64,000 nt of DNA from an uncultured Paraprevotella sp. (GCA_944321975.1 CALUNJ010000002.1:1680-65679), one strand, 5' to 3'; counted from the first letter of the stretch, positions 28,803-41,542 are shown. The notes: generated by a model not told the origin, from the letters alone. Translations and numbers: made by a program.

Positions 28803-28880
28803 AATCTACTATTTTTATTGTTCGGTGAACAAATGTACACAAAAAAGCCAAGTTCCAATTGCACCAATAGAAAAAAAACG

Positions 28881-28888
28881 TATATTTG
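28881..28888 (+). promoter_or_regulatory. Candidate -7 promoter element of the Sel1-FtsK-WXG operon; divergent TACATTTG at 28830-28837 (-)
   Basis: TATATTTG matches TAnnTTTG, 21 nt before ATG 28910. Confidence 0.55.
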
Positions 28889-28909
28889 TATGCTGTAATA
28901 TCTATTATT

Positions 28910-31276
28910 ATGATGAAACATGCCGCATTGGATTCGATTTGCAATACGATAGACTGCGCGATGGGCGTGGGGTTGCCGGGCGGAGCCGGTCTCGGCGTGG
29001 TGCTCCGGGTGGATGACGTGCTGTCGCCCGAACCTTTGGTGCGGAAAAACGGAGCCAAGGAGTTCAGGGCATATCCGCGGGGCAACCCGGATTTGCGCGA
29101 AAGCCTCAAGAGGTTCCGTTCCTGGAATCCGCAGTTGGCAGATGCCGTTACGGCAGTGCTTGACGTGAGGGATGGCGAGAATCTGAAAGGAGTGCGCAAG
29201 GCGTTGGACCCATTCAAGAATGAAAGTCTTGCCTGCCGCGTGGCTTTGGCCAAGTGTTATCTGAGAGGGTTGGACGGGACAAAGGACAAGCCTTTGGCGA
29301 TGAGTTTGTTGGCAAAGGACGGGCAAGGCGATTCGGTGGAGGACATGGAGCGTGCCTGCCGCAGGACGGTCTTTTCCCCGGAAGAGTTGCTCAACGAGAT
29401 AGGGGCTTACCATTATGAAACCGGGAAAAGTGAAACGGCGCAGAAGTTTTTCAAACGCGCCATGGAACTTGACCCGAAGGAGAAGAACTTTGTTCATAAC
29501 TATTGCGTGGCGTTGGTCACTTTGGGATGGTACGCCACCGCTTTCCCCTACTTGTGCGAACAGTGCGAGCAGGGGGATGAGGATCTTTATTATAATTTAG
29601 GCTACGCTTACTATTACTACCACCGGCACGGGCATGGTGTGTTGTACAAGCCATTGCCGGACGAAGAGCCGCGCATGGCCGAAGATGTGGCCGAGGCGGC
29701 CAAATGGCTGTCCAAGAGCCGCGACACGCGGCGTTTCCCGTTGTTGTCGAAAATCTATTTCAATCATTACAGGTATAAGGACAAAGGGGGCGCAATCCAA
29801 AAAAGAGGTCATGGGCTTTTCGATGCCGGGGAGGCTTTCAAGGTTTGCATGCGGGGAGCCGAAAGCGGCGACTGTTATTCCATGGCTTGTGTGGGACTCC
29901 TTTACGGCTTGGGGCACGGTTGCGTGGGCAATCACCATGAATTGCTGAAGTGGTTGGGCGAAAGTGTGGACAAGTGCGGGCGGGAAAAACACGGTTTGTA
30001 CAAGGACGCTTTGTTCCTGTTGGCCGTAGTGGGCATGCCTGACCAGGGCAAATGGATGCGTTATTTGGAGAAATACACGAAAGAGTGTCCGGACGGGGTG
30101 CCTCTTGCCGATTATAAGTTGGCCAAGGTGTCTTATGCAGTCGAGAATTATGAGGTTGCTTCTTCTTTGTTTGTGTCCGCCTTGGACAAAATGAAAAAAT
30201 CCCCTCGCAAGATGCTTTTGCATAAACTCATGCCCTACATTTGGTTTTATGCCGGGATGAGTGCCTATAAGATGAAACATTGGGAGGCAGCCAAGACATT
30301 TTGGGATGAAGCTGTCCGGCAGGAGGGCGATGCCGCTGCGGCTTATTTCATCGGCAAGATGTACATGGACAGGCTGGTGGGCGCGTCGCTCTCCAAGGAT
30401 GAAGCCAACGACCAAGCCATTTCTTATTTCGTGGCATCGGCCGAGATGGGGGATAAGGATGCCCCGCGCATGGCTTTCGAACGTTTGTTCTATAAGGATC
30501 GTTATAAGTATCCCGACCAGCGTACCAAGACCGTGGATTACGCTTTCCTTGCGGCTTCGACGGGGTATGCCCCGGCGCAATTCTACCTTTATGCCCATTT
30601 CTGTACGGTGAGCGACTCCTATTATAATAAGGAATACCAGAAAGAGAACTTCAGCATACGGGTGGGCGGGAAGCTCCGGACGTTTTCCACGAACCCGGAG
30701 CACTATCTGGCCTTGTCGCGCGAAGCCGGCTATAAAGAAGCGCGTTATGTTTGCGCTTTATATTACAAGCGTCCGCTTGAAGAGGTGGTCAGTACGCTGA
30801 ATGAAATGATGACCGATTACGGGTATGATGGGACGATAGGAAAAATATTGAGTCGCAAGTATGTAGAACTTAATGCGGCGAAAGCGCATTATGAGTTGGC
30901 CTATGCCTTGACACGGCGTGGAGGCGAACGTCACATGATGACGGGCGTGAACTGCATGAGGATGTACCTTGACCGTGAAGAAAACCGTACGAGATTGAGG
31001 TATAAAAACTCGTTGGGCAAGGATTGTGTGTATGTATATCCTGTATCTAATTGGTATGCTGCGAAAGGCTTGAAGTGGCTACTGGAAACGTTGGTGAAGG
31101 CCGGGAAAATGGAAGAGGCCGCCAAGGACGTGGGGCGTTATTATGCATTGAAAAACCGTTCCGGCGTAGATGAAGAATGGTTGGAAAAACATGCTTCCGG
31201 TATTAAGCATTTGGTGTTTCAGATAGAACATCCCAAGGCTTCAAAGATGTTGGACAAGATATTCAGAGGGTTGTAA
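28910..31276 (+). CDS. Sel1/TPR repeat protein
   Basis: LAKCYLRG.DG, YNLGYAYY, AAKWLSKS, VGLLYGLGHG, AYFIGKMY, A..GY.PAQF.L; no obvious signal peptide; start placed after the promoter motif. Confidence 0.8.
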   Translation: MMKHAALDSICNTIDCAMGVGLPGGAGLGVVLRVDDVLSPEPLVRKNGAKEFRAYPRGNPDLRESLKRFRSWNPQLADAVTAVLDVRDGENLKGVRKALDPFKNESLACRVALAKCYLRGLDGTKDKPLAMSLLAKDGQGDSVEDMERACRRTVFSPEELLNEIGAYHYETGKSETAQKFFKRAMELDPKEKNFVHNYCVALVTLGWYATAFPYLCEQCEQGDEDLYYNLGYAYYYYHRHGHGVLYKPLPDEEPRMAEDVAEAAKWLSKSRDTRRFPLLSKIYFNHYRYKDKGGAIQKRGHGLFDAGEAFKVCMRGAESGDCYSMACVGLLYGLGHGCVGNHHELLKWLGESVDKCGREKHGLYKDALFLLAVVGMPDQGKWMRYLEKYTKECPDGVPLADYKLAKVSYAVENYEVASSLFVSALDKMKKSPRKMLLHKLMPYIWFYAGMSAYKMKHWEAAKTFWDEAVRQEGDAAAAYFIGKMYMDRLVGASLSKDEANDQAISYFVASAEMGDKDAPRMAFERLFYKDRYKYPDQRTKTVDYAFLAASTGYAPAQFYLYAHFCTVSDSYYNKEYQKENFSIRVGGKLRTFSTNPEHYLALSREAGYKEARYVCALYYKRPLEEVVSTLNEMMTDYGYDGTIGKILSRKYVELNAAKAHYELAYALTRRGGERHMMTGVNCMRMYLDREENRTRLRYKNSLGKDCVYVYPVSNWYAAKGLKWLLETLVKAGKMEEAAKDVGRYYALKNRSGVDEEWLEKHASGIKHLVFQIEHPKASKMLDKIFRGL

Positions 31277-34200
31277 TGGCAAGGAAAGAGACATATGAAA
31301 TGAAGGCACGGTTGGAACAGTTTGGCCGTGAGGCAGTGCATGCGGATTGGTTGAAAGAGAACTGCGCGTGGCTCAACAAGTTCTTCCGGGTCTGGATGGA
31401 AGTGTACCGGGAATGTTATTATCTGCGTGCCTTGGAGAGCCGTCCCAAAAGCGGAAAGGTCAAGGTCGACCTGACGGATGCGAATGCATTCATATACTGT
31501 GAAATTTTGGATCGGTTGGAGAAATGCCTGGAAAAGGAAGCGTTTTTTGATGCAGACGTGGTGGAAGAATTGTGGAACAAACGGTTGCCTTGTCCCGTAG
31601 AGCAGACGGCGGCTTTCAAGAAAGCCGTGTGCGAGGTGCTCGAAAAACGGCAGGCTGCGGCGCTGGCCGCAGGGCGGAAACAGCAGGAGTCGTTACAGGC
31701 GGAATTGGATCGCATGGGAAGCGGTATGGCTTATTACAAACCGGTGGACACGGATCTCCTGTTCGACGCGTGGCGGAGCGAGGCTGCCGGCCACGTGGCG
31801 TGCGCAGGTTTCCCTTGGGAATACGACAGCACGACGGTGGCTTTCAGCGGAGTGCCAACCGAAGTCTTTACGCCCCGCTTCGTCGACTGGCAAAAGAAAG
31901 GGGCACCGCCCCATTTCGTGATTTCAAAAGGCCGGGATGACGTGGCCGTTGCGCGCCGGATTGTGCTGTCGATGTTGTTGTCGCTTCCGGTAGGCAAACT
32001 GAAAGTGACGTTTATAGACCTGGGCTTTTCCGACAAACTCACGGCTTTCCGCGACAGTCTGGACAAGGCTTTCACCAAGAGCCTTGTGCTTACGGCCGAG
32101 TCCTTGTCGGAGTGGACGAGGGAACGGACCCGTTGGTTCTGTGACACGTTTGCCGCATGCGGCGACGTGGTGGACTTCAACCGTGCGCAAGGACGCATCG
32201 TGCACGGTTACGAGGTGTGTGTGGTGAACGGCCTGGGCGGCGACATGGCGGATGTGACCTACTCCGCCGCATTGGCGCGCTTGGTGAACGAGGGATATAA
32301 AGCGGGCATTTATTTCGTGGTGATAGGCGATTTGTTGCGCAAGTGGGACAGCCGCCTGTTCCGTCCCATGAAGGCGGTTGAGGTTTACGCACGCAAGCAA
32401 TGTCCCATACCGCTGTGGTCCGAGTCCGGCTATGCCCGCTTGATGGATAGGATGAACGGCAGTGTTTCGGAACAAGAACAGCAAAACAAAGCGGTAAAGA
32501 AACGGCAATTGGAGACACGGCGGCAAGCGGCCTTTGAGGCCCCGTTCCTTGATGCCACGCAAGATTTCGACATCGAAATCGGTGAGATGTTGGACGGAGT
32601 GGGGCGAGGGCATTTCAAACTTGACGAGGAAACGCATACGCACGCTTTCGTGCTCGGAAAGACGGGATCCGGGAAGTCGGTGTTCCTGCACACCTTGCTG
32701 CATCAGGCCATGCTCAAATATTCCCCCCAGACCCTCCAGTTCTACCTGATGGATTTCAAAATAGGGGGCGTGGAATTGAACCGTTACCGCAACTATCCCC
32801 ACGTGAGGGCTTTGATGGCGGATCAGGGCGACCTGAAAGTGATGCTCGAAATCCTGCGCGACCTTGAAAGGCTGATGGCCGAGCGCGGCCGCGCCTTGCG
32901 CGAGGCGGGATGTACCAAACTGAAAGATTATAACGCCAAGCACTCCGGCAAGCCGATGCCTCGGCTCGTGTTGCTGGTGGACGAATGCCAGGAACTGTTT
33001 AAGGAAGGGCGTTCGGGCATGCAGGGCGAAATAGACCAGATCGTGACGAAGATAGCCAAGCAGGGACGAAGCCAGGGCGTACACATTATTTTTGCCACCC
33101 AGACGCTTTGCGGTTGTGTGGTGCCGCGCGACTTGCCCAGCCAAATCACCGACCCCTACTTGCTGTTGTGCGAAATGGCAGACGCGCAGCGCTTCATTAA
33201 GAATCCCGAACGGGTAATGGAGGCGATGGTGCCGCACAGCCTGGTGCATGTGAATGCGTATGAACAGAAAGCGGAGAAAATATTGCCGGACTGCCTTGAG
33301 GCGGTGATGGACGACTACCAGCATGCCATCGTGGAGAAGAACGGTGGGGCGGACACGGGCTTTGATTCTTTCTATTTTTCCGGGACGCAACAATACAGTT
33401 TGATAGACGACCTGAGGGAGTGCAGCTATCGCCGCCGTCCCGAGTTGACGTTGGGGCGCAGCCTCCAGGTGCGTTCGGAGAATGGGAATTTCAGGCTGTT
33501 GAGCGAGATGTCGCAAAACATATTGGTTTTGGGAGACAACAGGAAGTGCCAAGGGCTGCGCGTGATGCTGGTGGCTTTGCTTGCGCTGATGCATTATGAC
33601 CGTAAGAAGAATACGGGAGCACGCTTCATCCTGTTCCTCAATGGCGACCTTTCGGATTTTCCCGATATGGAAGATTACATTTACGGCCTTGAGGATTGGG
33701 GGCTGGAAATCTATGATAACCAACGCCAGCGTGAGACTGCGTTGGCAGAACTTTATGGAGAGATGCAGCGCGAGGACGAGTGCCCCATCTTTGTGTTCGT
33801 GGCCAACCAGGATTATTATTCCGAATTGAGGATGGATGTGAACCTCAAAGTGGAGGCTCCGAGAAAGGGGGAGGGAGCGGCTTCAGGGCGCGAACTTTAT
33901 GAGGCCAACATGTTTTATAACGGCAATGTGGAATTTGCCAAAGCGGACGCAAGGGGGAAGGCCTCTGTCACTGTGGCCGATGCGTGGAGGGAACTGCTTC
34001 GCAACGGTCCTGTGCGCAACATCTTCACCGTGTGGCAAGTGCAGCGGTTGGCCAATTTTATGTTCAAGCCCGGCGGGGTATTCGCTTCCGATGTGAGCGA
34101 GCTGTTCCTTTACATGGCATGCCTGCCTACAAAGGAGGGCGTGGAAAACAAGTTCGATTTTGAACGAGAGGTGAAGTTGGCAGAACTGCATGGGGAAGAT

Positions 34201-34320
34201 GACAATCTTCAACTCTATTTCTATCACATTGCAGACAGTGAAGGGCGTGTGCTCTCGGCCTATGCCCTGCCAGCCCAAGAAGAATGGGAAGATTTTATGC
34301 CTAAAAAAATGAAAAAATAG
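31276..34320 (+). CDS. FtsK/SpoIIIE-family ATPase (EssC/YukB-like multi-domain)
   Basis: HAFVLGKTGSGKS (Walker A), YLMDFKIGGVE, RLVLLVDECQELF (Walker B), KQGRSQGVHIIFATQ; TAATG overlap with the upstream gene. Confidence 0.9.
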   Translation: MARKETYEMKARLEQFGREAVHADWLKENCAWLNKFFRVWMEVYRECYYLRALESRPKSGKVKVDLTDANAFIYCEILDRLEKCLEKEAFFDADVVEELWNKRLPCPVEQTAAFKKAVCEVLEKRQAAALAAGRKQQESLQAELDRMGSGMAYYKPVDTDLLFDAWRSEAAGHVACAGFPWEYDSTTVAFSGVPTEVFTPRFVDWQKKGAPPHFVISKGRDDVAVARRIVLSMLLSLPVGKLKVTFIDLGFSDKLTAFRDSLDKAFTKSLVLTAESLSEWTRERTRWFCDTFAACGDVVDFNRAQGRIVHGYEVCVVNGLGGDMADVTYSAALARLVNEGYKAGIYFVVIGDLLRKWDSRLFRPMKAVEVYARKQCPIPLWSESGYARLMDRMNGSVSEQEQQNKAVKKRQLETRRQAAFEAPFLDATQDFDIEIGEMLDGVGRGHFKLDEETHTHAFVLGKTGSGKSVFLHTLLHQAMLKYSPQTLQFYLMDFKIGGVELNRYRNYPHVRALMADQGDLKVMLEILRDLERLMAERGRALREAGCTKLKDYNAKHSGKPMPRLVLLVDECQELFKEGRSGMQGEIDQIVTKIAKQGRSQGVHIIFATQTLCGCVVPRDLPSQITDPYLLLCEMADAQRFIKNPERVMEAMVPHSLVHVNAYEQKAEKILPDCLEAVMDDYQHAIVEKNGGADTGFDSFYFSGTQQYSLIDDLRECSYRRRPELTLGRSLQVRSENGNFRLLSEMSQNILVLGDNRKCQGLRVMLVALLALMHYDRKKNTGARFILFLNGDLSDFPDMEDYIYGLEDWGLEIYDNQRQRETALAELYGEMQREDECPIFVFVANQDYYSELRMDVNLKVEAPRKGEGAASGRELYEANMFYNGNVEFAKADARGKASVTVADAWRELLRNGPVRNIFTVWQVQRLANFMFKPGGVFASDVSELFLYMACLPTKEGVENKFDFEREVKLAELHGEDDNLQLYFYHIADSEGRVLSAYALPAQEEWEDFMPKKMKK

Positions 34321-34325
34321 AAGAT

Positions 34326-34604
34326 ATGTCTGACGTAATAGTACATTCGCAGGAAGAGCTTCTGCATTTTGCCCAGGGGTTGTCCAACCTGAGTGAAAGG
34401 TTGGTGGCAAGTTTTGAACAGGCCAATGCCGAGATGAATCGAGTGAACGAGGGCTGGCACGACGACCAAAACTTGCGCTTTATGAACGAATTCCGGCACG
34501 CCACTGCGGCCATCCACAACATTTCCGACATGATGCAGGCTTATAGCGCCTATATCCGTCGCTATGCGGCCGCATTGGAGGCAGCTAAAAATATCAGGAT
34601 ATGA
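34326..34604 (+). CDS. WXG100/Esx-like small helical protein (W-x-D variant)
   Basis: 92 aa, two amphipathic helices around a central EGWHDDQ, N-terminal EEL..FA..L. Confidence 0.7.
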   Translation: MSDVIVHSQEELLHFAQGLSNLSERLVASFEQANAEMNRVNEGWHDDQNLRFMNEFRHATAAIHNISDMMQAYSAYIRRYAAALEAAKNIRI

Positions 34605-35113
34605 CAGCCGACTTCCATGTGCGCGACATCCAGGCTTTGGGGAGCTATGTAGATAGGGCGATGGCGTGGGTGTCGGATGTGCGGGGCGCGGTTGCCGTGG
34701 CCATGCAGCGTCTCGGCCTTATCCTTCAGAATGGACGTATGGCGGTACACAAGATAGAGTGCGACGTGGCTGAAATCGAGGGAGAACTGGAGGACATCGA
34801 GAGCGAACTTGCCTCGTTGAACTATGAAATGGACTGTTTGTATGACGGCACCGACGGGCAGCGGCGAGCCTCGCTGCAATGTGAAATCAACCGGGTACGG
34901 GCGCAGCGCAGAGAAGTGCAGGCCAAACTTGTTGAGCGCAAAAGCGATTTGAGGCGGGCGCAAGGATGCCTCACGGAGATGGAAGCATGTTGTGAAAAAG
35001 GGATGGCACTGTTGGCCGACTTGCAGTCTGGCACGGAGAATGCCGTAGACTCGTCTGTGGCTTTTGTGCGTCGTTACATGCTTTTCCTTCAGGACGCCAG
35101 CCGGGTGAGATAG
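34601..35113 (+). CDS. Coiled-coil hypothetical protein (possible Esx partner/substrate)
   Basis: 170 aa heptad-rich sequence; ATGA overlap with the upstream gene. Confidence 0.7.
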   Translation: MTADFHVRDIQALGSYVDRAMAWVSDVRGAVAVAMQRLGLILQNGRMAVHKIECDVAEIEGELEDIESELASLNYEMDCLYDGTDGQRRASLQCEINRVRAQRREVQAKLVERKSDLRRAQGCLTEMEACCEKGMALLADLQSGTENAVDSSVAFVRRYMLFLQDASRVR

Positions 35114-35142
35114 GAAACAGGGAACAGGAAAACGGAAGATTT

Positions 35143-35367
35143 ATGATGTCGGAACAAATAGACATGGCCGCGTTCAGGAGCCTGGAGGGGAAACTCCGGA
35201 AAGCGGCACATGGTTTGAATGCAGTGTGGAACGACCGTCAATATGATTACTTCGAGCAGGCATACGTGGGTGAAGCGGAAAGTTTTGTCCGCAATAAGGT
35301 GGATGAACTGGACGAAGTGAATGACATGTTGTATGCGTGCCAGAGTGAGTTGGGCGGCTTGGTGTGA
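35143..35367 (+). CDS. Second short WXG100-like protein (W-x-D)
   Basis: 74 aa helical, LNAVWNDRQYDYFEQ; co-oriented, last gene of the operon. Confidence 0.6.
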   Translation: MMSEQIDMAAFRSLEGKLRKAAHGLNAVWNDRQYDYFEQAYVGEAESFVRNKVDELDEVNDMLYACQSELGGLV

Positions 35368-35527
35368 CCCCGTGAATGTATAAAAGACGTATTTTATTGA
35401 TAATAAAACAATAAAATATTTGTGTGGATGAATTTTATTTCTATCTTTGTATTTGCGATTCCTATGATGTGAGAGGTGGGAAGGAGGCAAGCTAAACCAT
35501 TGTATAATTTGAAAAGATGAAGAAATC

Positions 35528-36598: not shown

Positions 36599-38563
36599 TC
36601 ATTGGGCCGGGGGCGTATGTACATAGTCATACAGCCGCCGGTAGAATGCCGTGCGGCAGAGGGTGTGGCTGTCACCTACCAGGATGAGTTTCATCCGTGC
36701 CCGTGTGATGGCCACGTTCATGCGGCGCAGGTCGTGGAGGAAGCCGATTTGCCCTTCGGCGTTGCTGCGGACCATGCTGATCAGGATGATGTCGCGTTCC
36801 TGTCCTTGGAACCCGTCCACGGTGTTTACGCTGAGCAGGTGGCGGTAGGGCTTGAAGAACTCGTCGCGGCGCAGCAGGACGCGCAGCAGCCTCACTTGCC
36901 CTTTGTAGGGCGAAATGATGCCGGTGTCGATTCTTTCTTCCAGTATGCGTCCCTTCCCGATTTTCTGGAAATAGTGTTTCAGGATGTCCAGGGTGAGCCG
37001 GGCTTCTGTGGGGTTGGCGCGGCTGGTGCTGTCCGGGCTTTGCGTTTCGCCGGAATCATGGTCGGGGACACGTCCCTCACGTTCTTCTTCAGGAGGCAGG
37101 AAATGGGCGGTTTGGGTCGGGTCTGCCGTGTCGATCCATTCCATGGGGCTTTCCCAATCCAGTATGCCGCGGTATTTCACTTCCGGGGCGCTTTCCACCT
37201 TGCCCCCGTAGAAGCATTCGCTGGAGAAGCGCATGATTTGTTCGTTCATGCGGTACTGGGTGCGGAGCAGGCAGACGGCAGCCGGCTGGCGGCTGGCGAC
37301 GGATTCCATCAGGGTCTGTCCCAGCCCGCCTTTGAGCGCTTCGGGGCATTTCACGGTGGGCGGCAGCTGCCGGTGGTCGCCGGCCAGGATGACCCGGCCC
37401 GCCTTCTGGATGGCGATCCAGCAGGCGGCCTCGAGGGCTTGGGCGGCTTCGTCGATGAAAAGGGTGGTGAACTTTTTCCCCATGAGCACGCGATGGGCGC
37501 TTCCGGCGAGGGTGCAGGCGATCACGCGGGCGTCATTGAAGAGGTTCTCGTTGATGCTGATTTCCAGTTCGGTGGCCCGGTCGCGAAGCCGGGCTATCTT
37601 TTGGTGGAAGGCTTCTCGTCCCGTGGCCGGGCGGTGGGCGTAGAGTTCACGTATGGTTTTCCGGATGGCCCAGAGTTGCGGATAAGAAGGGTGTGCTTCG
37701 AAGCGCCGCTCATAGGTGAAGGACAGCATCTTGTCGTTGACGCGCGATGGGTTGCCGACGCGCAGTACGGACACGCCGCGGTCGGTGAGCTTTTCTGCGA
37801 TCCAGTCCACGGCCATGTTGCTTTGGGCGCACACGAGCACTTGGCTTTCGCGGTGGAGGGTTTCGTGGATGGCTTCCACGAGGGTCGTGGTCTTTCCGGT
37901 GCCCGGGGGGCCGTGTACGACCATCACGTCTTTTGCGCGCAACACTTCGTTGACGGCTGTTTCCTGTGTGGGGTTCAGCCAGGGGAAGCGCATGGGCGGG
38001 AGGTGCAGTTTCCCGGCCATGGCTGTGCCGTGGAAAATTTCCCGCAGTTCCGCCAGCCTGCCGTGTTTGGCTGCGGCGGCCTTTTCCAAGGCCTCGAACA
38101 TCAGCCGGTAGGTTGTTTCATCCAAGGCCAGTTGCACGCCGGCGCGTTCGCTTTCGCGCAAGAGGGCCAAGGCTTCGGCCCCGGGCAGTGCGGCCACCAT
38201 CAGGTTGCCGTCCACGAAACTCACGGTGGCCGTGAAGTGGAAATAGTGCAACCGCCCTCCCTGCGTGCCGTTTCTGCGCAGTTCTCCTGAAGCGTCCTGG
38301 GTGAAGAAGCACACTTGCTTGCCCGGTTCGAAGCCGTGCTCCTCATCGGTGTATTCCGTGCGTTCGGCCTCGACGACCAACTGGTTGAGCGAGTTGTAGT
38401 AGCTCTTTCCGAACCGGACCGGATACCAGCACAAGCCTTGTTTTACTTTCCGGGCCACTCCGGCGGCTTCGGTCTGTTGCCGGAACTGGGCTTTTTCATA
38501 TTCGTATTCCAGTTTCAGCAACTGGCGTTGACGTTGCAGCCATGATAAGGAAGAGGCAGGCAT
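36599..38563 (-). CDS. Superfamily 1 (Upf1/IGHMBP2-like) helicase
   Basis: GPPGTGKTT, IDEAAQ, GDHRQLPPT, QYRM, TVDGFQGQE, RRMNVAITRAR. Confidence 0.93.
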   Translation of the reverse strand: MPASSLSWLQRQRQLLKLEYEYEKAQFRQQTEAAGVARKVKQGLCWYPVRFGKSYYNSLNQLVVEAERTEYTDEEHGFEPGKQVCFFTQDASGELRRNGTQGGRLHYFHFTATVSFVDGNLMVAALPGAEALALLRESERAGVQLALDETTYRLMFEALEKAAAAKHGRLAELREIFHGTAMAGKLHLPPMRFPWLNPTQETAVNEVLRAKDVMVVHGPPGTGKTTTLVEAIHETLHRESQVLVCAQSNMAVDWIAEKLTDRGVSVLRVGNPSRVNDKMLSFTYERRFEAHPSYPQLWAIRKTIRELYAHRPATGREAFHQKIARLRDRATELEISINENLFNDARVIACTLAGSAHRVLMGKKFTTLFIDEAAQALEAACWIAIQKAGRVILAGDHRQLPPTVKCPEALKGGLGQTLMESVASRQPAAVCLLRTQYRMNEQIMRFSSECFYGGKVESAPEVKYRGILDWESPMEWIDTADPTQTAHFLPPEEEREGRVPDHDSGETQSPDSTSRANPTEARLTLDILKHYFQKIGKGRILEERIDTGIISPYKGQVRLLRVLLRRDEFFKPYRHLLSVNTVDGFQGQERDIILISMVRSNAEGQIGFLHDLRRMNVAITRARMKLILVGDSHTLCRTAFYRRLYDYVHTPPAQ

Positions 38564-39508: not shown

Positions 39509-39648
39509 TTTCTTGTGATAGTTGCCTTGTGCTTGAAAATTGCGGCAAAGTTACGTTTTTTATCACAATTTTTAGCATCATTCCGTTGCTTCTTTCTGTG
39601 GGAAAGGTTATCTTTGTCTGAAGAGACGAGGAAAAGGAGGTGCAGGTC

Positions 39649-40467
39649 ATGGGAAAGGTCGGCGAATATATTCAGCGCATAGAGATAGACTCGCTTTGGA
39701 GCGGGCAGAAGCACATCGTGTGGGATTTGCACCGCAAGGTGAATATCCTGAGCGGGGTGAACGGAGTGGGGAAAAGCACGATCCTGAACAAGGTGGTCCT
39801 GAAATTGCTTGAGGCCATGAAGGAAAACACGCCTGTCAGGCCGGAAGTGGAACTTACTTATTATCCGGAGGATGCCACGACGGTGCGGTTCGACGTGATA
39901 CGCAGCTTCGACCGCCCGCTGGTGCAGGGCGATTTGTTGGAGAAACTGGCCGATGCCAGGGTGGCCACGGAGCTGGATTGGCAACTTTACCAGCTGCAGA
40001 GACGTTTCCTGGACTATCAGGTGAACGTGGGCAACCGCATGATCGCCATGCTGACGAGCGGTGCTCCGGATGCCCGGGAAAAGGCCCAGCAGGCCGCACA
40101 GGCTCGCCTCCAGTTCCAGGACATCGTGGACGAACTGTTCTGTGAGACGGGGAAAAAGATAGTCCGCACCAGCAATGAAATCCAATTGGAGCAATTCGGG
40201 GAGGTGTTGTCGCCCTATAAACTGTCTTCGGGCGAGAAGCAGATGCTGGTCATCTTGCTCACGGTGCTGGTGGAGGACAGGTTGCCGTATGTGCTCTTCA
40301 TGGACGAACCGGAAGTGAGCCTGCACATCGAGTGGCAGCAGAAGTTGATCAGCCTGATCCGCCAGTTGAACCCGAACGTGCAGATCATCCTGACCACGCA
40401 TTCGCCTGCCGTAATCATGAACGGATGGATGGATGCCGTGACGGAAGTGACCGACATTACTCTGTGA
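39649..40467 (+). CDS. ABC-type ATPase (AAA_21/AAA_15-like)
   Basis: GVNGVGKST, LSSGEKQ, FMDEPEVSLH, TTHSP; alternative GTG start 39640. Confidence 0.9.
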   Translation: MGKVGEYIQRIEIDSLWSGQKHIVWDLHRKVNILSGVNGVGKSTILNKVVLKLLEAMKENTPVRPEVELTYYPEDATTVRFDVIRSFDRPLVQGDLLEKLADARVATELDWQLYQLQRRFLDYQVNVGNRMIAMLTSGAPDAREKAQQAAQARLQFQDIVDELFCETGKKIVRTSNEIQLEQFGEVLSPYKLSSGEKQMLVILLTVLVEDRLPYVLFMDEPEVSLHIEWQQKLISLIRQLNPNVQIILTTHSPAVIMNGWMDAVTEVTDITL

Positions 40468-40489
40468 GCGGAGGAAAGGAGGACGGGCT

Positions 40490-41542
40490 ATGGCCAAACG
40501 TTTGTCGGAAAATCTGACGTCCCTCTATCTGGGAGCCGCACAGAAACTGAAATCGAAGACGGCGCGGAAGAAAGTCGTGGCCTATGTGGAAAGCTACGAT
40601 GACATTTTTTTCTGGCGCACTGTTTTGGACGAGTTTGAAAATGAGACGTGCTATTTCGAGGTCATGCTGCCTTCAAGGGACACGTTGGGCAAGGGAAAGA
40701 AACTGGCTTTGACCAACCGGCTGGGCCCGCAATTGGGCAGCTATATGATTGCTTGTGTCGATGCCGATTATGATTACCTTTTGCAGGATTCCACGCCGAC
40801 TTCGCAACTTGTCAACCGGAATCCTTATGTGTTCCACACTTATGTTTACGCCATTGAGAATTACCAATGTTATGCCGGCAGTTTGCATCGGGTTTGCGTG
40901 ATGGCCACGCTCAATGACCGGCAAGTCGTGAATCTGGAGGAATTCATGCGGAGGTATTCCTTGATCATATGGCCCTTGTTCGTGTGGTCGGTGTGGGTGT
41001 ATCGCAGCGACCGTTATCGGGAGTTCACCTTGTCGGAATTCGGGGCGGCTGTTTCGTTTAATGATTTCAATGTCTACCACCCGGAACAGACGCTGGACTA
41101 TGTCCGCCGGAAGGTGAACCGGAAAATGTCGTGGCTGCAGCGGAATTTCCCTGAGGCGCGAAAGGAATATGGCCCCCTGAAGGCGGAACTCCTGCGGTTG
41201 GGCGTGACACCTGAGACCACGTATCTCTATATCCAGGGGCACACGCTATTCGACAATGTGGTGTGCCCGTTGTTGAATCCGGTTTGCGTGATTTTGCGCA
41301 AGGAGCGTGAACGCGAGATCCGGAATTTGGCTGAACATGAGATTCAGCGGCAGAATGAATTGTCGTGTTACCAGCATAGCCAGAACCCTGTGGAAGAGAT
41401 GTTGCGCAAGAACATGGGCTTCAAAGACGCGCCTCCTTACCAGCTCCTTCGCCGTGATTTGGCCCGTTTGGTGGAGAGCGTGGAGCAAGGCGGGAATGGA
41501 GGCAGAGGAGATGAGGCGGGACAGGCGGGGGAAAAGGCGTAG
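40490..41542 (+). CDS. DUF4435 (TOPRIM-like) protein
   Basis: VAYVESYDD..FW, ACVDADYDY, YAIENY, QGH. Confidence 0.85.
   Translation: MAKRLSENLTSLYLGAAQKLKSKTARKKVVAYVESYDDIFFWRTVLDEFENETCYFEVMLPSRDTLGKGKKLALTNRLGPQLGSYMIACVDADYDYLLQDSTPTSQLVNRNPYVFHTYVYAIENYQCYAGSLHRVCVMATLNDRQVVNLEEFMRRYSLIIWPLFVWSVWVYRSDRYREFTLSEFGAAVSFNDFNVYHPEQTLDYVRRKVNRKMSWLQRNFPEARKEYGPLKAELLRLGVTPETTYLYIQGHTLFDNVVCPLLNPVCVILRKEREREIRNLAEHEIQRQNELSCYQHSQNPVEEMLRKNMGFKDAPPYQLLRRDLARLVESVEQGGNGGRGDEAGQAGEKA

Follow-up and report, generated by a model that had tools for sequence, protein, structure and literature searches.

Organization of the cassette

A 64,000-nt window of DNA from an uncultured Paraprevotella sp. (the whole stretch analysed here, to which all coordinates refer) carries five closely packed open reading frames (ORFs) at positions 28910–35367, all on the plus strand and all with intact frames in the ORF read-out. 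They encode a protein with tetratricopeptide (TPR)/Sel1-like repeats, a soluble ATPase of the FtsK family that resembles EssC and EccC of type VII secretion systems (T7SSs), and three small helical proteins, referred to here as S1, S2 and S3. With high confidence, we regard this cassette as a laterally acquired, self-contained and membrane-less module of an EssC-like ATPase and solo WXG100 proteins, in a five-gene Bacteroidales form. It belongs securely to the membrane-less EssC-like/WXG100 class, which has already been recognised computationally. The features of the locus are as follows.

28847..35400 (approximate borders), plus strand: inserted cassette of ~6.55 kb, between a divergent nitroreductase gene and sod
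28881..28888, plus strand: TATATTTG, candidate Bacteroidetes −7-type promoter motif, 22 nt before ATG 28910; supported by position
28910..31276, plus strand: TPR/Sel1-like repeat protein, 788 aa (Pfam TPR_2 28.2 bits, cut-off 27)
31276..34320, plus strand: soluble EssC/EccC-like FtsK-family ATPase, 1014 aa (Pfam FtsK_SpoIIIE 1e-28)
34326..34604, plus strand: S1, 92-aa helical hairpin assigned to the WXG100 superfamily, W44-x-D46 (Pfam WXG100_2, profile match)
34601..35113, plus strand: S2, 170-aa predicted long helical hairpin with no enzymatic domain (AlphaFold2 (AF2) pLDDT 93.4)
35143..35367, plus strand: S3, 74-aa shortened WXG100-like hairpin, W29-x-D31 (hhalign to the S1 family)

An earlier reading of this DNA (the original prediction) had placed a minimal type VII operon of five co-oriented, tightly coupled genes at 28881–35367, and the ORF read-out confirmed the arrangement and every junction. 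The stop codon of the TPR gene and the start codon of the ATPase gene overlap by 1 nt (TAATG at 31276), S1 starts at 34326 after a spacing of 5 nt, S1 and S2 share a 4-nt ATGA overlap at 34601, and S3 starts at 35143, 29 nt after S2. The ORFs stood as described, except that the first gene most likely starts from ATG 28910 rather than from TTG 28886; the latter codon falls within the TATATTTG motif. A single TAnnTTTG motif had been proposed ahead of the operon. The motif is present at 28881–28888 but is not unique: three further plus-strand copies lie inside cassette genes (at 30236, 30746 and 33087), and the window holds 32 copies against 21 expected, a mild enrichment. Because TAnnTTTG recurs within genes and is so little enriched, only the position of TATATTTG argues for a promoter. 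That the five ORFs are genuine genes and did not arise by chance follows from the conservation of the whole set, which recurs in loci where ATPase identity is just 25–44%. Within the S2 gene, towards its 3′ end and before S3, a terminator-like hairpin with a T-run occurs at 35042–35061 (plus strand); it is probably there by chance, the scan having found fewer such sites than were found in shuffled sequences, although a putative bearing on S3 expression could be envisaged.

A soluble ATPase related to EccC and EssC

The AF2 model of the ATPase (pLDDT 85.7, built on 80 relatives) consists of a helical N-terminus followed by three P-loop domains, which we delimited as follows.

31276..31725, plus strand: all-helical N-terminal domain, residues 1–150 (secondary structure of the model), at the position of the FHA and transmembrane (TM) regions of EssC/EccC
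31783..32415, plus strand: degenerate P-loop domain 1, residues ~170–380, with SKGRDD at the P-loop and without the Walker B DE
32563..33345, plus strand: intact middle domain, residues ~430–690, with Walker A GKTGSGKS at 32656–32679 and Walker B LLVDE at 32968–32985
33373..34317, plus strand: degenerate P-loop domain 3, residues ~700–1014, with GDNRKCQG at the P-loop and ANQD at Walker B

GKTGSGKS (residues 461–468) and LLVDE are confined to the middle domain, and residues G461, G464, G466, K467, S468, D569, E570, R598 and Q609 are invariant across the 80 relatives. In the family alignment, domain 1 keeps some conserved residues that are not catalytic. A hydropathy scan revealed no TM segment in this ATPase or in ~120 relatives, and the helical N-terminus is soluble in the model. 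Neither a DNA-binding gamma domain nor a helix-turn-helix (HTH) was detected in the ATPase with Pfam.

The proposed kinship to T7SS ATPases was borne out by both sequence and structure, with the EccCa/EssC models and EccC structures outscoring FtsK, TcpA, TraB, TraD and VirB4. Among the NCBIfam models, EccCa (3e-29), EssC (1e-22) and EccCb (7e-19) ranked above FtsK (2.7e-7), VirB4 (8e-5), TraB (9e-4) and TraD (0.04), with all scores far below the curated equivalog cut-offs (102 versus 509 bits), as expected of a distant relative. Comparison of the ATPase family profile with PDB sequences gave the same order (EccC 4.6e-31, YukB 1.8e-26, FtsK 4e-20 and TcpA 6e-16), and the best PDB match of the middle domain was domain 1 of EccC, at 4.6e-31. 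With Foldseek, the whole protein aligned best to the cytoplasmic part of EccC, with its three ATPase domains (4nh0; 4.6e-24 over 989 columns), followed by EssC D2–D3 (6.8e-21), single-domain FtsK (~3e-13) and TcpA (~2e-11), and domain 3 aligned to ATPases 2–3 of EccC/EssC. Grouping with coupling proteins or with chromosomal FtsK, an outcome that the original prediction had allowed for, was not observed (EccCa 3e-29 versus FtsK 2.7e-7). An identity as chromosomal FtsK or as a conjugative coupling protein was rejected on the lower scores and on the presence of a separate 838-aa FtsK-like ORF elsewhere in the host genome. A STAND/NLR-type ATPase was also rejected, as the NACHT/nSTAND P-loop matches were weak.

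Helical hairpin proteins and the TPR/Sel1 protein

Profile and motif evidence places S1 in the WXG100 superfamily. It scores 27.6 bits with Pfam WXG100_2 (cut-off 27) and 7e-4 with WXG100, and its family profile matches the solved SAG1039 over the full length (3.3e-8), as well as S. aureus EsxA and B. anthracis EsxB (~6e-5, full length). W44 and D46 are invariant in S1 and, in the alignment to solved WXG100 proteins, are positioned at the W-x-G turn; it is W-x-D, not W-x-G, that is invariant in the S1 and S3 families. No conserved YxxxD/E export signal was seen in the alignment of S1 tails, and a [FY][IV][RK][RK]Y-type tail is common to S1 and S2. S3 is a shortened paralogue of S1, to whose family it aligns on the W-x-D core (hhalign 93%, E 2.4e-7). 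Three of eight S3-family members match Pfam WXG100 (best 1.9e-4), and the nearest ESM Atlas clusters of S3 are 70-aa proteins from Verrucomicrobiota and Planctomycetota.

S2 is modelled as one hairpin, with helices at residues 2–79 and 86–169, and its first 39 residues can be aligned to the S1 profile (hhalign 93%). A Foldseek comparison of the S2 model with the PDB returned just generic antiparallel coiled coils (E ≥ 0.01) and no LXG relative, and the LXG domain (PF04740) matched neither S2 nor its family. The small ORFs had been predicted to be helical hairpins conserved with the ATPase; the WXG100 match of S1, the paralogy of S3 and the confident S2 model all agree with this, and all three are kept together with the ATPase. 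A predicted S1+S3+S2 complex scored 0.81, and a control in which another chain stood in for chain 1 reached 0.82. Clustering of proteins at 90% groups the 92-aa S1 with 170-aa S2-type proteins of Paraprevotella that share similarity in a short tail, probably an artefact of the overlapping genes.

The TPR/Sel1 protein at the operon front, described originally as cytoplasmic-looking, indeed has neither a signal peptide nor a TM segment, and its repeat assignment exceeds the Pfam cut-off. Its repeats come after a conserved N-terminal domain of ~110 aa. A full-length orthologue with 26% identity (4e-69) is encoded in a related locus, L004, and the N-terminal domain also occurs in the upstream proteins of loci L011 (1e-7) and L006, the latter a 10-repeat Sel1 protein (4e-111). 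A rearranged locus, L045, also encodes a TPR protein. In none of the five cassette proteins did the hydropathy scan find a transmembrane-grade hydrophobic stretch, and no signal peptide, C-terminal domain of the type IX secretion system (T9SS), or membrane or outer-membrane component was found among them.

Insertion site and distribution

The cassette was gained laterally, as an insertion in conserved synteny. Its neighbours are a POT transporter gene, the nitroreductase gene (minus strand, Pfam 1e-29), a Fe/Mn sod (plus strand, 7e-40) and a superfamily 1 (SF1) helicase gene (minus strand), so the predicted setting between nitroreductase and sod holds. Eight genomes of the same genus have the order POT–nitroreductase(−)–~235 bp–sod(+)–helicase(−) with nothing in between; because these congeners keep the ~235-bp nitroreductase–sod interval, the window carries a 6.55-kb insertion, and alignment of the empty sites to the window puts the left border of the cassette near 28847 and the right one near 35400. 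A search for flanking repeats, direct or inverted, found none, there is no integrase, as originally noted, and no GC anomaly was seen (0.531 versus 0.552).

Apart from the window's own genome, only 1 of 24 genomes of the genus gave a match, to a distant version located elsewhere, beside rpoA. This version (locus L041, G014:C24, 5328–14589) encodes a 386-aa protein, an ATPase of 1208 aa and proteins of 93, 166 and 77 aa; it lies directly after rpsD/rpoA, is followed by a gene for a 1082-aa DUF6055 protein, and the genome's own nitroreductase–sod site is empty. In an order-level draw, 8 of 400 further genomes matched at E ≤ 1e-30, mostly in the ATPase domain alone. Neither the PLSDB plasmids nor the INPHARED phages yielded a full-length copy. 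A word-indexed search recovered 360 relatives of the ATPase, and in every neighbourhood examined the ATPase gene (875–1307 aa) is followed by S1-, S2- and S3-type genes; a TPR/Sel1-type protein is usually encoded 5′ of the ATPase, an arrangement that holds down to 25% ATPase identity. The five-gene set recurs in many gut metagenome contigs, and the cassettes of relatives occupy unrelated housekeeping sites, as a self-contained mobile unit would. The search of genome contigs confirmed at least three loci, and the phylum-level range is therefore taken from the literature.

Compared with locus L004, S1 is 76% identical, the ATPase 44%, S2 37%, S3 38% and the TPR protein 26%. By a wide margin, S1 is the best-conserved of the cassette proteins, a pattern consistent with a constant hub around which sensor and effector parts evolve quickly. 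An identical S1 protein occurs on 243 public assembly contigs, and an S2 orthologue with 84% identity is annotated in Paraprevotella. No other S1, S2 or S3 homologue was found in the host genome (86% complete). Parts of the operon, with low depth and gaps, were found in metatranscriptome contigs (Logan) from three studies, and one of these contigs spans the TPR/ATPase junction; DNA carry-over being possible, these contigs are weak evidence of expression.

Effector domains and neighbours in relatives

An exhaustive profile search of the S2 family yielded 213 members, the majority of them toxin-less proteins of 156–173 aa. About 16 members carry a C-terminal extension of 30–250 residues after the N-terminal S2 domain. 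Among 12 of these extended proteins that were scanned (275–406 aa), one contains Endonuclea_NS_2 (P0290, 3.8e-26), another gives a weak zincin/SprT-like signal, and most extensions contain nothing recognisable. Judged by these fusions, the S2 slot is a carrier for variable effector domains, of which the window copy represents the common toxin-less form.

Two gene orders were seen for such carriers. One runs from an S1-type WXG100 gene (hhalign 98%) through the carrier with its extension, a 138-aa protein and a 75-aa protein (W-R-D) to the FtsK ATPase and a TPR protein; S3 matches the 75-aa W-R-D protein of L045 at E 1e-3 only. The other consists of a type III restriction enzyme, a WXG100 protein, the carrier with its nuclease and proteins of 99 and 70 aa. 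The latter is exemplified by L043 (3382–8351) and L044, in which the WXG100 and Endonuclea_NS_2-fused carrier genes lie directly 3′ of the type III restriction enzyme gene (PADLOC 1e-198), with an N6/N4 methyltransferase gene nearby; both contigs stop before any ATPase position.

Two plasmids of Proteobacteria carry this core as well. A Helicobacter plasmid has the order S1-type–HNH nuclease–SUKH/SMI1-KNR4 immunity–small protein–ATPase, and its S1-type protein matches the S1 profile (hhalign 94%). On a Caballeronia plasmid, the core lies between VWA/TerY genes, next to a CARF–PD-DExK nuclease (9e-271), a PP2C and a kinase. The S2 profile gave no significant match to the Helicobacter HNH protein or the Caballeronia 436-aa protein, nor did the S3 profile to the small proteins of either plasmid.

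Two further loci depart from these layouts. In a Bacteroidales genome (L042, G355:C2, 3087–8438, minus strand), an ATPase of 933 aa is followed by a 194-aa Fib_succ_major-like protein, a 91-aa WXG100 protein (Pfam 27.5 bits, cut-off 27.1) and proteins of 418 aa (with a weak GNAT signal) and 74 aa. In a metagenome-assembled genome of Prevotellaceae (L013, 7376–8542), the S1-type gene is followed by one for a protein of 388 aa, whose N-terminus is acidic and of low complexity and which ends in an alpha/beta-hydrolase domain (UPF0227, 1e-8); this protein is a possible non-hairpin effector.

Comparison with known systems

The class to which the cassette belongs is described in Table 1, note 6, of Zhang et al. 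2012 (PMC3482391), as a soluble EssC/YueA-like ATPase with a solo WXG protein that was judged to be mobile. In the passages on the module in Bell et al. 2024 (PMC11090510), it is attached to CoCoNuT/TerY-P systems (type III-A extension); its ATPase has an N-terminal coiled coil replacing the FHA and TM regions, two WXG100 proteins and a fusion of a coiled coil with a REase-like nuclease accompany it, and, as TM domains are missing, a mechanism other than that of EssC is deemed likely. Citing Anantharaman et al. 2012, the same passages treat the operon as a mobile element that also occurs stand-alone. The table note and these passages give the class three FtsK/HerA domains with the central one alone active, list Bacteroidetes and describe the class without experiments. 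The novelty implied by the original prediction is therefore not supported. HP0062/HP0066 has been described as a minimal WxG/FtsK set (PMC4978471). A literature search found no paper on the Bacteroidales form and no experiment on the class.

As far as the module is described there, the cassette shares with it the three domains with Walker A/B in the middle one alone, the helical N-terminus without TM segments, two WXG100-type proteins (one further from the canonical form), a coiled-coil protein and the patchy, mobile distribution. It differs in standing alone rather than inside a CoCoNuT/TerY-P operon, in a coiled-coil protein (S2) without a nuclease domain, in the W-x-D rather than W-x-G motif of its small proteins, in the gene order TPR–ATPase–S1–S2–S3 and in a conserved fifth member, the TPR/Sel1 protein, which does not feature in those descriptions.

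In textbooks, T7SSs are confined to Actinomycetota and Bacillota. The cassette has in common with a canonical T7SS a (distant) tandem P-loop ATPase of the EccC/EssC type and an adjacent WXG100 protein of ~100 aa (S1). It lacks the N-terminal TM helices that anchor the ATPase in the membrane, the W-x-G turn and the YxxxD/E export signal, and no Pfam or NCBIfam match to EccB/D/E/MycP or EssA/EssB/EsaA was found in it; no conserved membrane protein was found across related loci. A canonical T7SS was rejected on these four grounds: anchor, membrane partners, W-x-G motif and export signal. The label of a type VII operon consequently fell, since the defining membrane features of a T7SS were tested and are absent, while the statement that the window copy has no EssA/EssB/EsaA-like membrane genes and no toxin–immunity pair was correct.

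With the T7SSb of Bacillota, the cassette shares ATPase kinship (YukB 1.8e-26; EssC D2–D3 fold 6.8e-21) and the WXG100 partner, and its relatives share a long helical carrier with a variable C-terminal toxin and small helical flanking proteins. Its ATPase, unlike EssC, has neither FHA nor TM regions and is arranged as pseudo–active–pseudo rather than as an active D1 with D2/D3; EssA/EssB/EsaA/EsaB, an LXG match and a toxin are missing from the cassette, and the host is diderm. An architecture analogous to that of the LXG toxin/Lap complex occurs only in cassette relatives (P0290). The ESX systems of Actinomycetota provide the best sequence and fold match (EccC 4.6e-31; 4nh0 4.6e-24, three domains), a degenerate domain ahead of the active one (compare the 'DUF' domain of EccC) and TPR domains, which there belong to the cytosolic accessory ATPase EccA, whereas the cassette is without EccB/D/E, MycP, TM segments and a conserved YxxxD/E tail.

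The parallel drawn to Helicobacter was supported by PMC4978471 and by the match of the Helicobacter plasmid protein to the S1 family profile. The HP0062 (solved)/HP0066 cluster and its plasmid relatives share an FtsK-family ATPase and a W-x-D-type partner of 89 aa. However, the match of HP0062 to the S1 profile is weak (E 0.16), the Helicobacter ATPase aligns to the window ATPase over the active domain only (36%), and the plasmid relative differs in its order (WXG–nuclease–immunity–small–ATPase) and in the presence of an HNH toxin with SUKH immunity. SspH, DndH, MADS mad8 and the HerA–Sir2/DUF4297 systems have an ATPase of the same superfamily and are patchily distributed, and some cassette relatives adjoin restriction genes; but the matches to these systems cover a single P-loop domain, they have no WXG100 partners, and their remaining genes are missing from the cassette. 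With PADLOC-DB 2.0, the ATPase matched SspH (2e-22), mad8 (1.5e-16) and HerA (1e-10), each in a single domain, and the full gene set matched no PADLOC-DB 2.0 system, the TPR protein, S1 and S3 being without any match.

Proposed role of the cassette

The original prediction had offered a conflict module or non-canonical export as options, and these remain the two live readings. We tentatively favour the former, with less than even confidence: the cassette would work in the cytoplasm as a conflict module, directed against mobile elements or concerned with toxin control, and not in secretion across the envelope. It is ranked first because there is no conduit through two membranes and because relatives are wired into restriction-type operons. 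For a cytoplasmic site of action, which we infer, speak the lack of TM segments in the five proteins and in ~120 family ATPases, the lack of a conserved membrane protein and the transfer of the cassette, as a closed unit, to unrelated housekeeping sites. The conflict role is suggested by the patchy distribution, by the Endonuclea_NS_2-fused S2 followed by small unannotated genes in relatives, by the location of relatives next to type III restriction or CARF nuclease genes and by a PARIS system 4.3 kb downstream in the window.

Several observations weigh against such a role. To our knowledge, all characterised pairs of EccC/EssC and WXG100 proteins are secretion systems. The HNH gene followed by SUKH/SMI1-KNR4 on the Helicobacter plasmid is the classic layout of an intercellular toxin, most Bacteroidales copies lie among housekeeping genes and not in defence islands, and the PADLOC matches are generic, to the FtsK/HerA domain only. 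No enzymatic effector is recognisable in the window copy, and no S1–S3 homologue is encoded elsewhere in the genome, so that no output is evident for the module.

We suggest, more guardedly still, that in diderm bacteria a soluble hexamer derived from a T7SS, together with a TPR/Sel1 sensor, remodels WXG100-type hairpins in the cytoplasm and thereby frees an effector that acts on incoming DNA or on the infected cell itself. The soluble ATPase would assemble into an FtsK-type hexamer. EsxB binds ATPase 3 of EccC, and the degenerate C-terminal domain of the window ATPase may similarly dock the hairpin bundle through the tails of S1 and S2. Input could come from the helical N-terminal domain and the translationally coupled TPR/Sel1 protein, acting as sensor or adaptor, upon which the middle domain would use ATP hydrolysis to remodel the bundle or to thread it, thereby releasing the output. 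For relatives, this output would be a nuclease or peptidase domain that the S2-type carrier bears as a fusion; for the toxin-less window copy, it would be the hairpins themselves, which perhaps act on the inner membrane, by analogy with the action of ESAT-6 on host membranes.

Export by a non-canonical route ranks second, as a possible though doubtful explanation. The cassette would then be a mobile minimal T7SS, whose ATPase loads S1, S2 and S3, and in relatives also the toxins on S2 carriers, onto a host-provided or unrecognised route against neighbouring bacteria, with the TPR/Sel1 protein as substrate chaperone. All precedent for the protein pair favours it, as does the HNH–SUKH layout on the Helicobacter plasmid, where nuclease and immunity genes occur together. 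Motor and clients are both homologous to those of T7SSs, and the carrier–toxin–small-gene layout of relatives mirrors that of T7SSb, with its LXG toxin, Lap partners and immunity. In other secretion systems, TPR proteins act as adaptors or chaperones, examples being the TPR domain of EccA and SycD/LcrH. The class has also been read earlier as a mobile or stand-alone T7SS (the note in PMC3482391; PMC4978471; Anantharaman 2012 as cited in PMC11090510), although the passages of Bell et al. 2024 (PMC11090510) favour a mechanism different from that of EssC. Two membranes would have to be crossed, yet the ~120 family ATPases have no TM anchor, and the cassette is without signal peptides, a T9SS C-terminal domain or any conserved component of the membrane or outer membrane; moreover, the YxxxD/E signal is not kept in S1 tails, and the window copy has no toxin or immunity gene.

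We consider it unlikely that the ATPase is a DNA-directed motor, that is, a hexamer that pumps DNA in the manner of FtsK, HerA–NurA or SspH/DndH while the hairpins tether nucleases or other factors, in a restriction-like machine whose nuclease was lost from the window copy. The best PADLOC matches are indeed FtsK-like parts of SspH, mad8 and HerA; relatives pair the module with Endonuclea_NS_2 or HNH nucleases and adjoin type III restriction and CARF nuclease genes, and a REase-like fusion is reported in the passages on the module in PMC11090510. However, the ATPase resembles the protein-handling EccC/EssC more closely than FtsK, both in E-value (by ~11 orders of magnitude) and in its three-domain architecture, it gave no match to a DNA-binding gamma domain or an HTH, WXG100 partners are specific to its protein-translocating relatives, and the window cassette has no nuclease. 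Least probable is an inert or decaying remnant, a polymorphic-toxin cassette that has lost its toxin and no longer has a function, which could appeal to the lack, in the window's S2, of the toxin domain present in some relatives and to the absence of partner genes elsewhere in the genome but is at odds with five intact frames, invariant catalytic motifs, the toxin-less 156–173-aa S2 as the family majority, a five-gene set kept across 25–44% ATPase identity, the exact S1 on 243 contigs and, weakly given possible DNA carry-over, operon fragments in metatranscriptome assemblies from three studies.

A membrane-less T7SS derivative is common in Bacteroidales of the human and animal gut and is on record in Proteobacteria, Planctomycetota and Verrucomicrobiota; prior mention of the class is limited, in the sources cited, to one table note and brief passages, all computational. 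The function of a soluble EssC-like motor with WXG100 hairpins would reveal either a new route of protein export in diderms or the recruitment of a T7SS core for intracellular immunity. If the cytoplasmic defence role is true, it would be the first intracellular, defence-type role of WXG100 proteins, and one widespread in gut Bacteroidales. The compact, toxin-less five-gene cassette should be readily accessible to genetic and biochemical work, with two comparative handles: the 170-aa hairpin, which is the slot for nuclease domains in relatives, and the TPR/Sel1 protein as a conserved fifth member.

Genes downstream of the cassette

The product of the SF1 helicase gene at 36599–38563 (minus strand; AAA_11/AAA_12) has a match to Mokosh MkoA in the helicase part of the latter (4.7e-83). 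Since this gene adjoins sod in at least ten genomes of the genus, it seems to be resident and not a component of a defence island. The PARIS pair 4.3 kb downstream of the cassette lies at 39640–41539 (plus strand) and encodes an AriA-like ABC ATPase (PADLOC 6.8e-57) and an AriB-like DUF4435/TOPRIM partner (PADLOC 2.4e-61).

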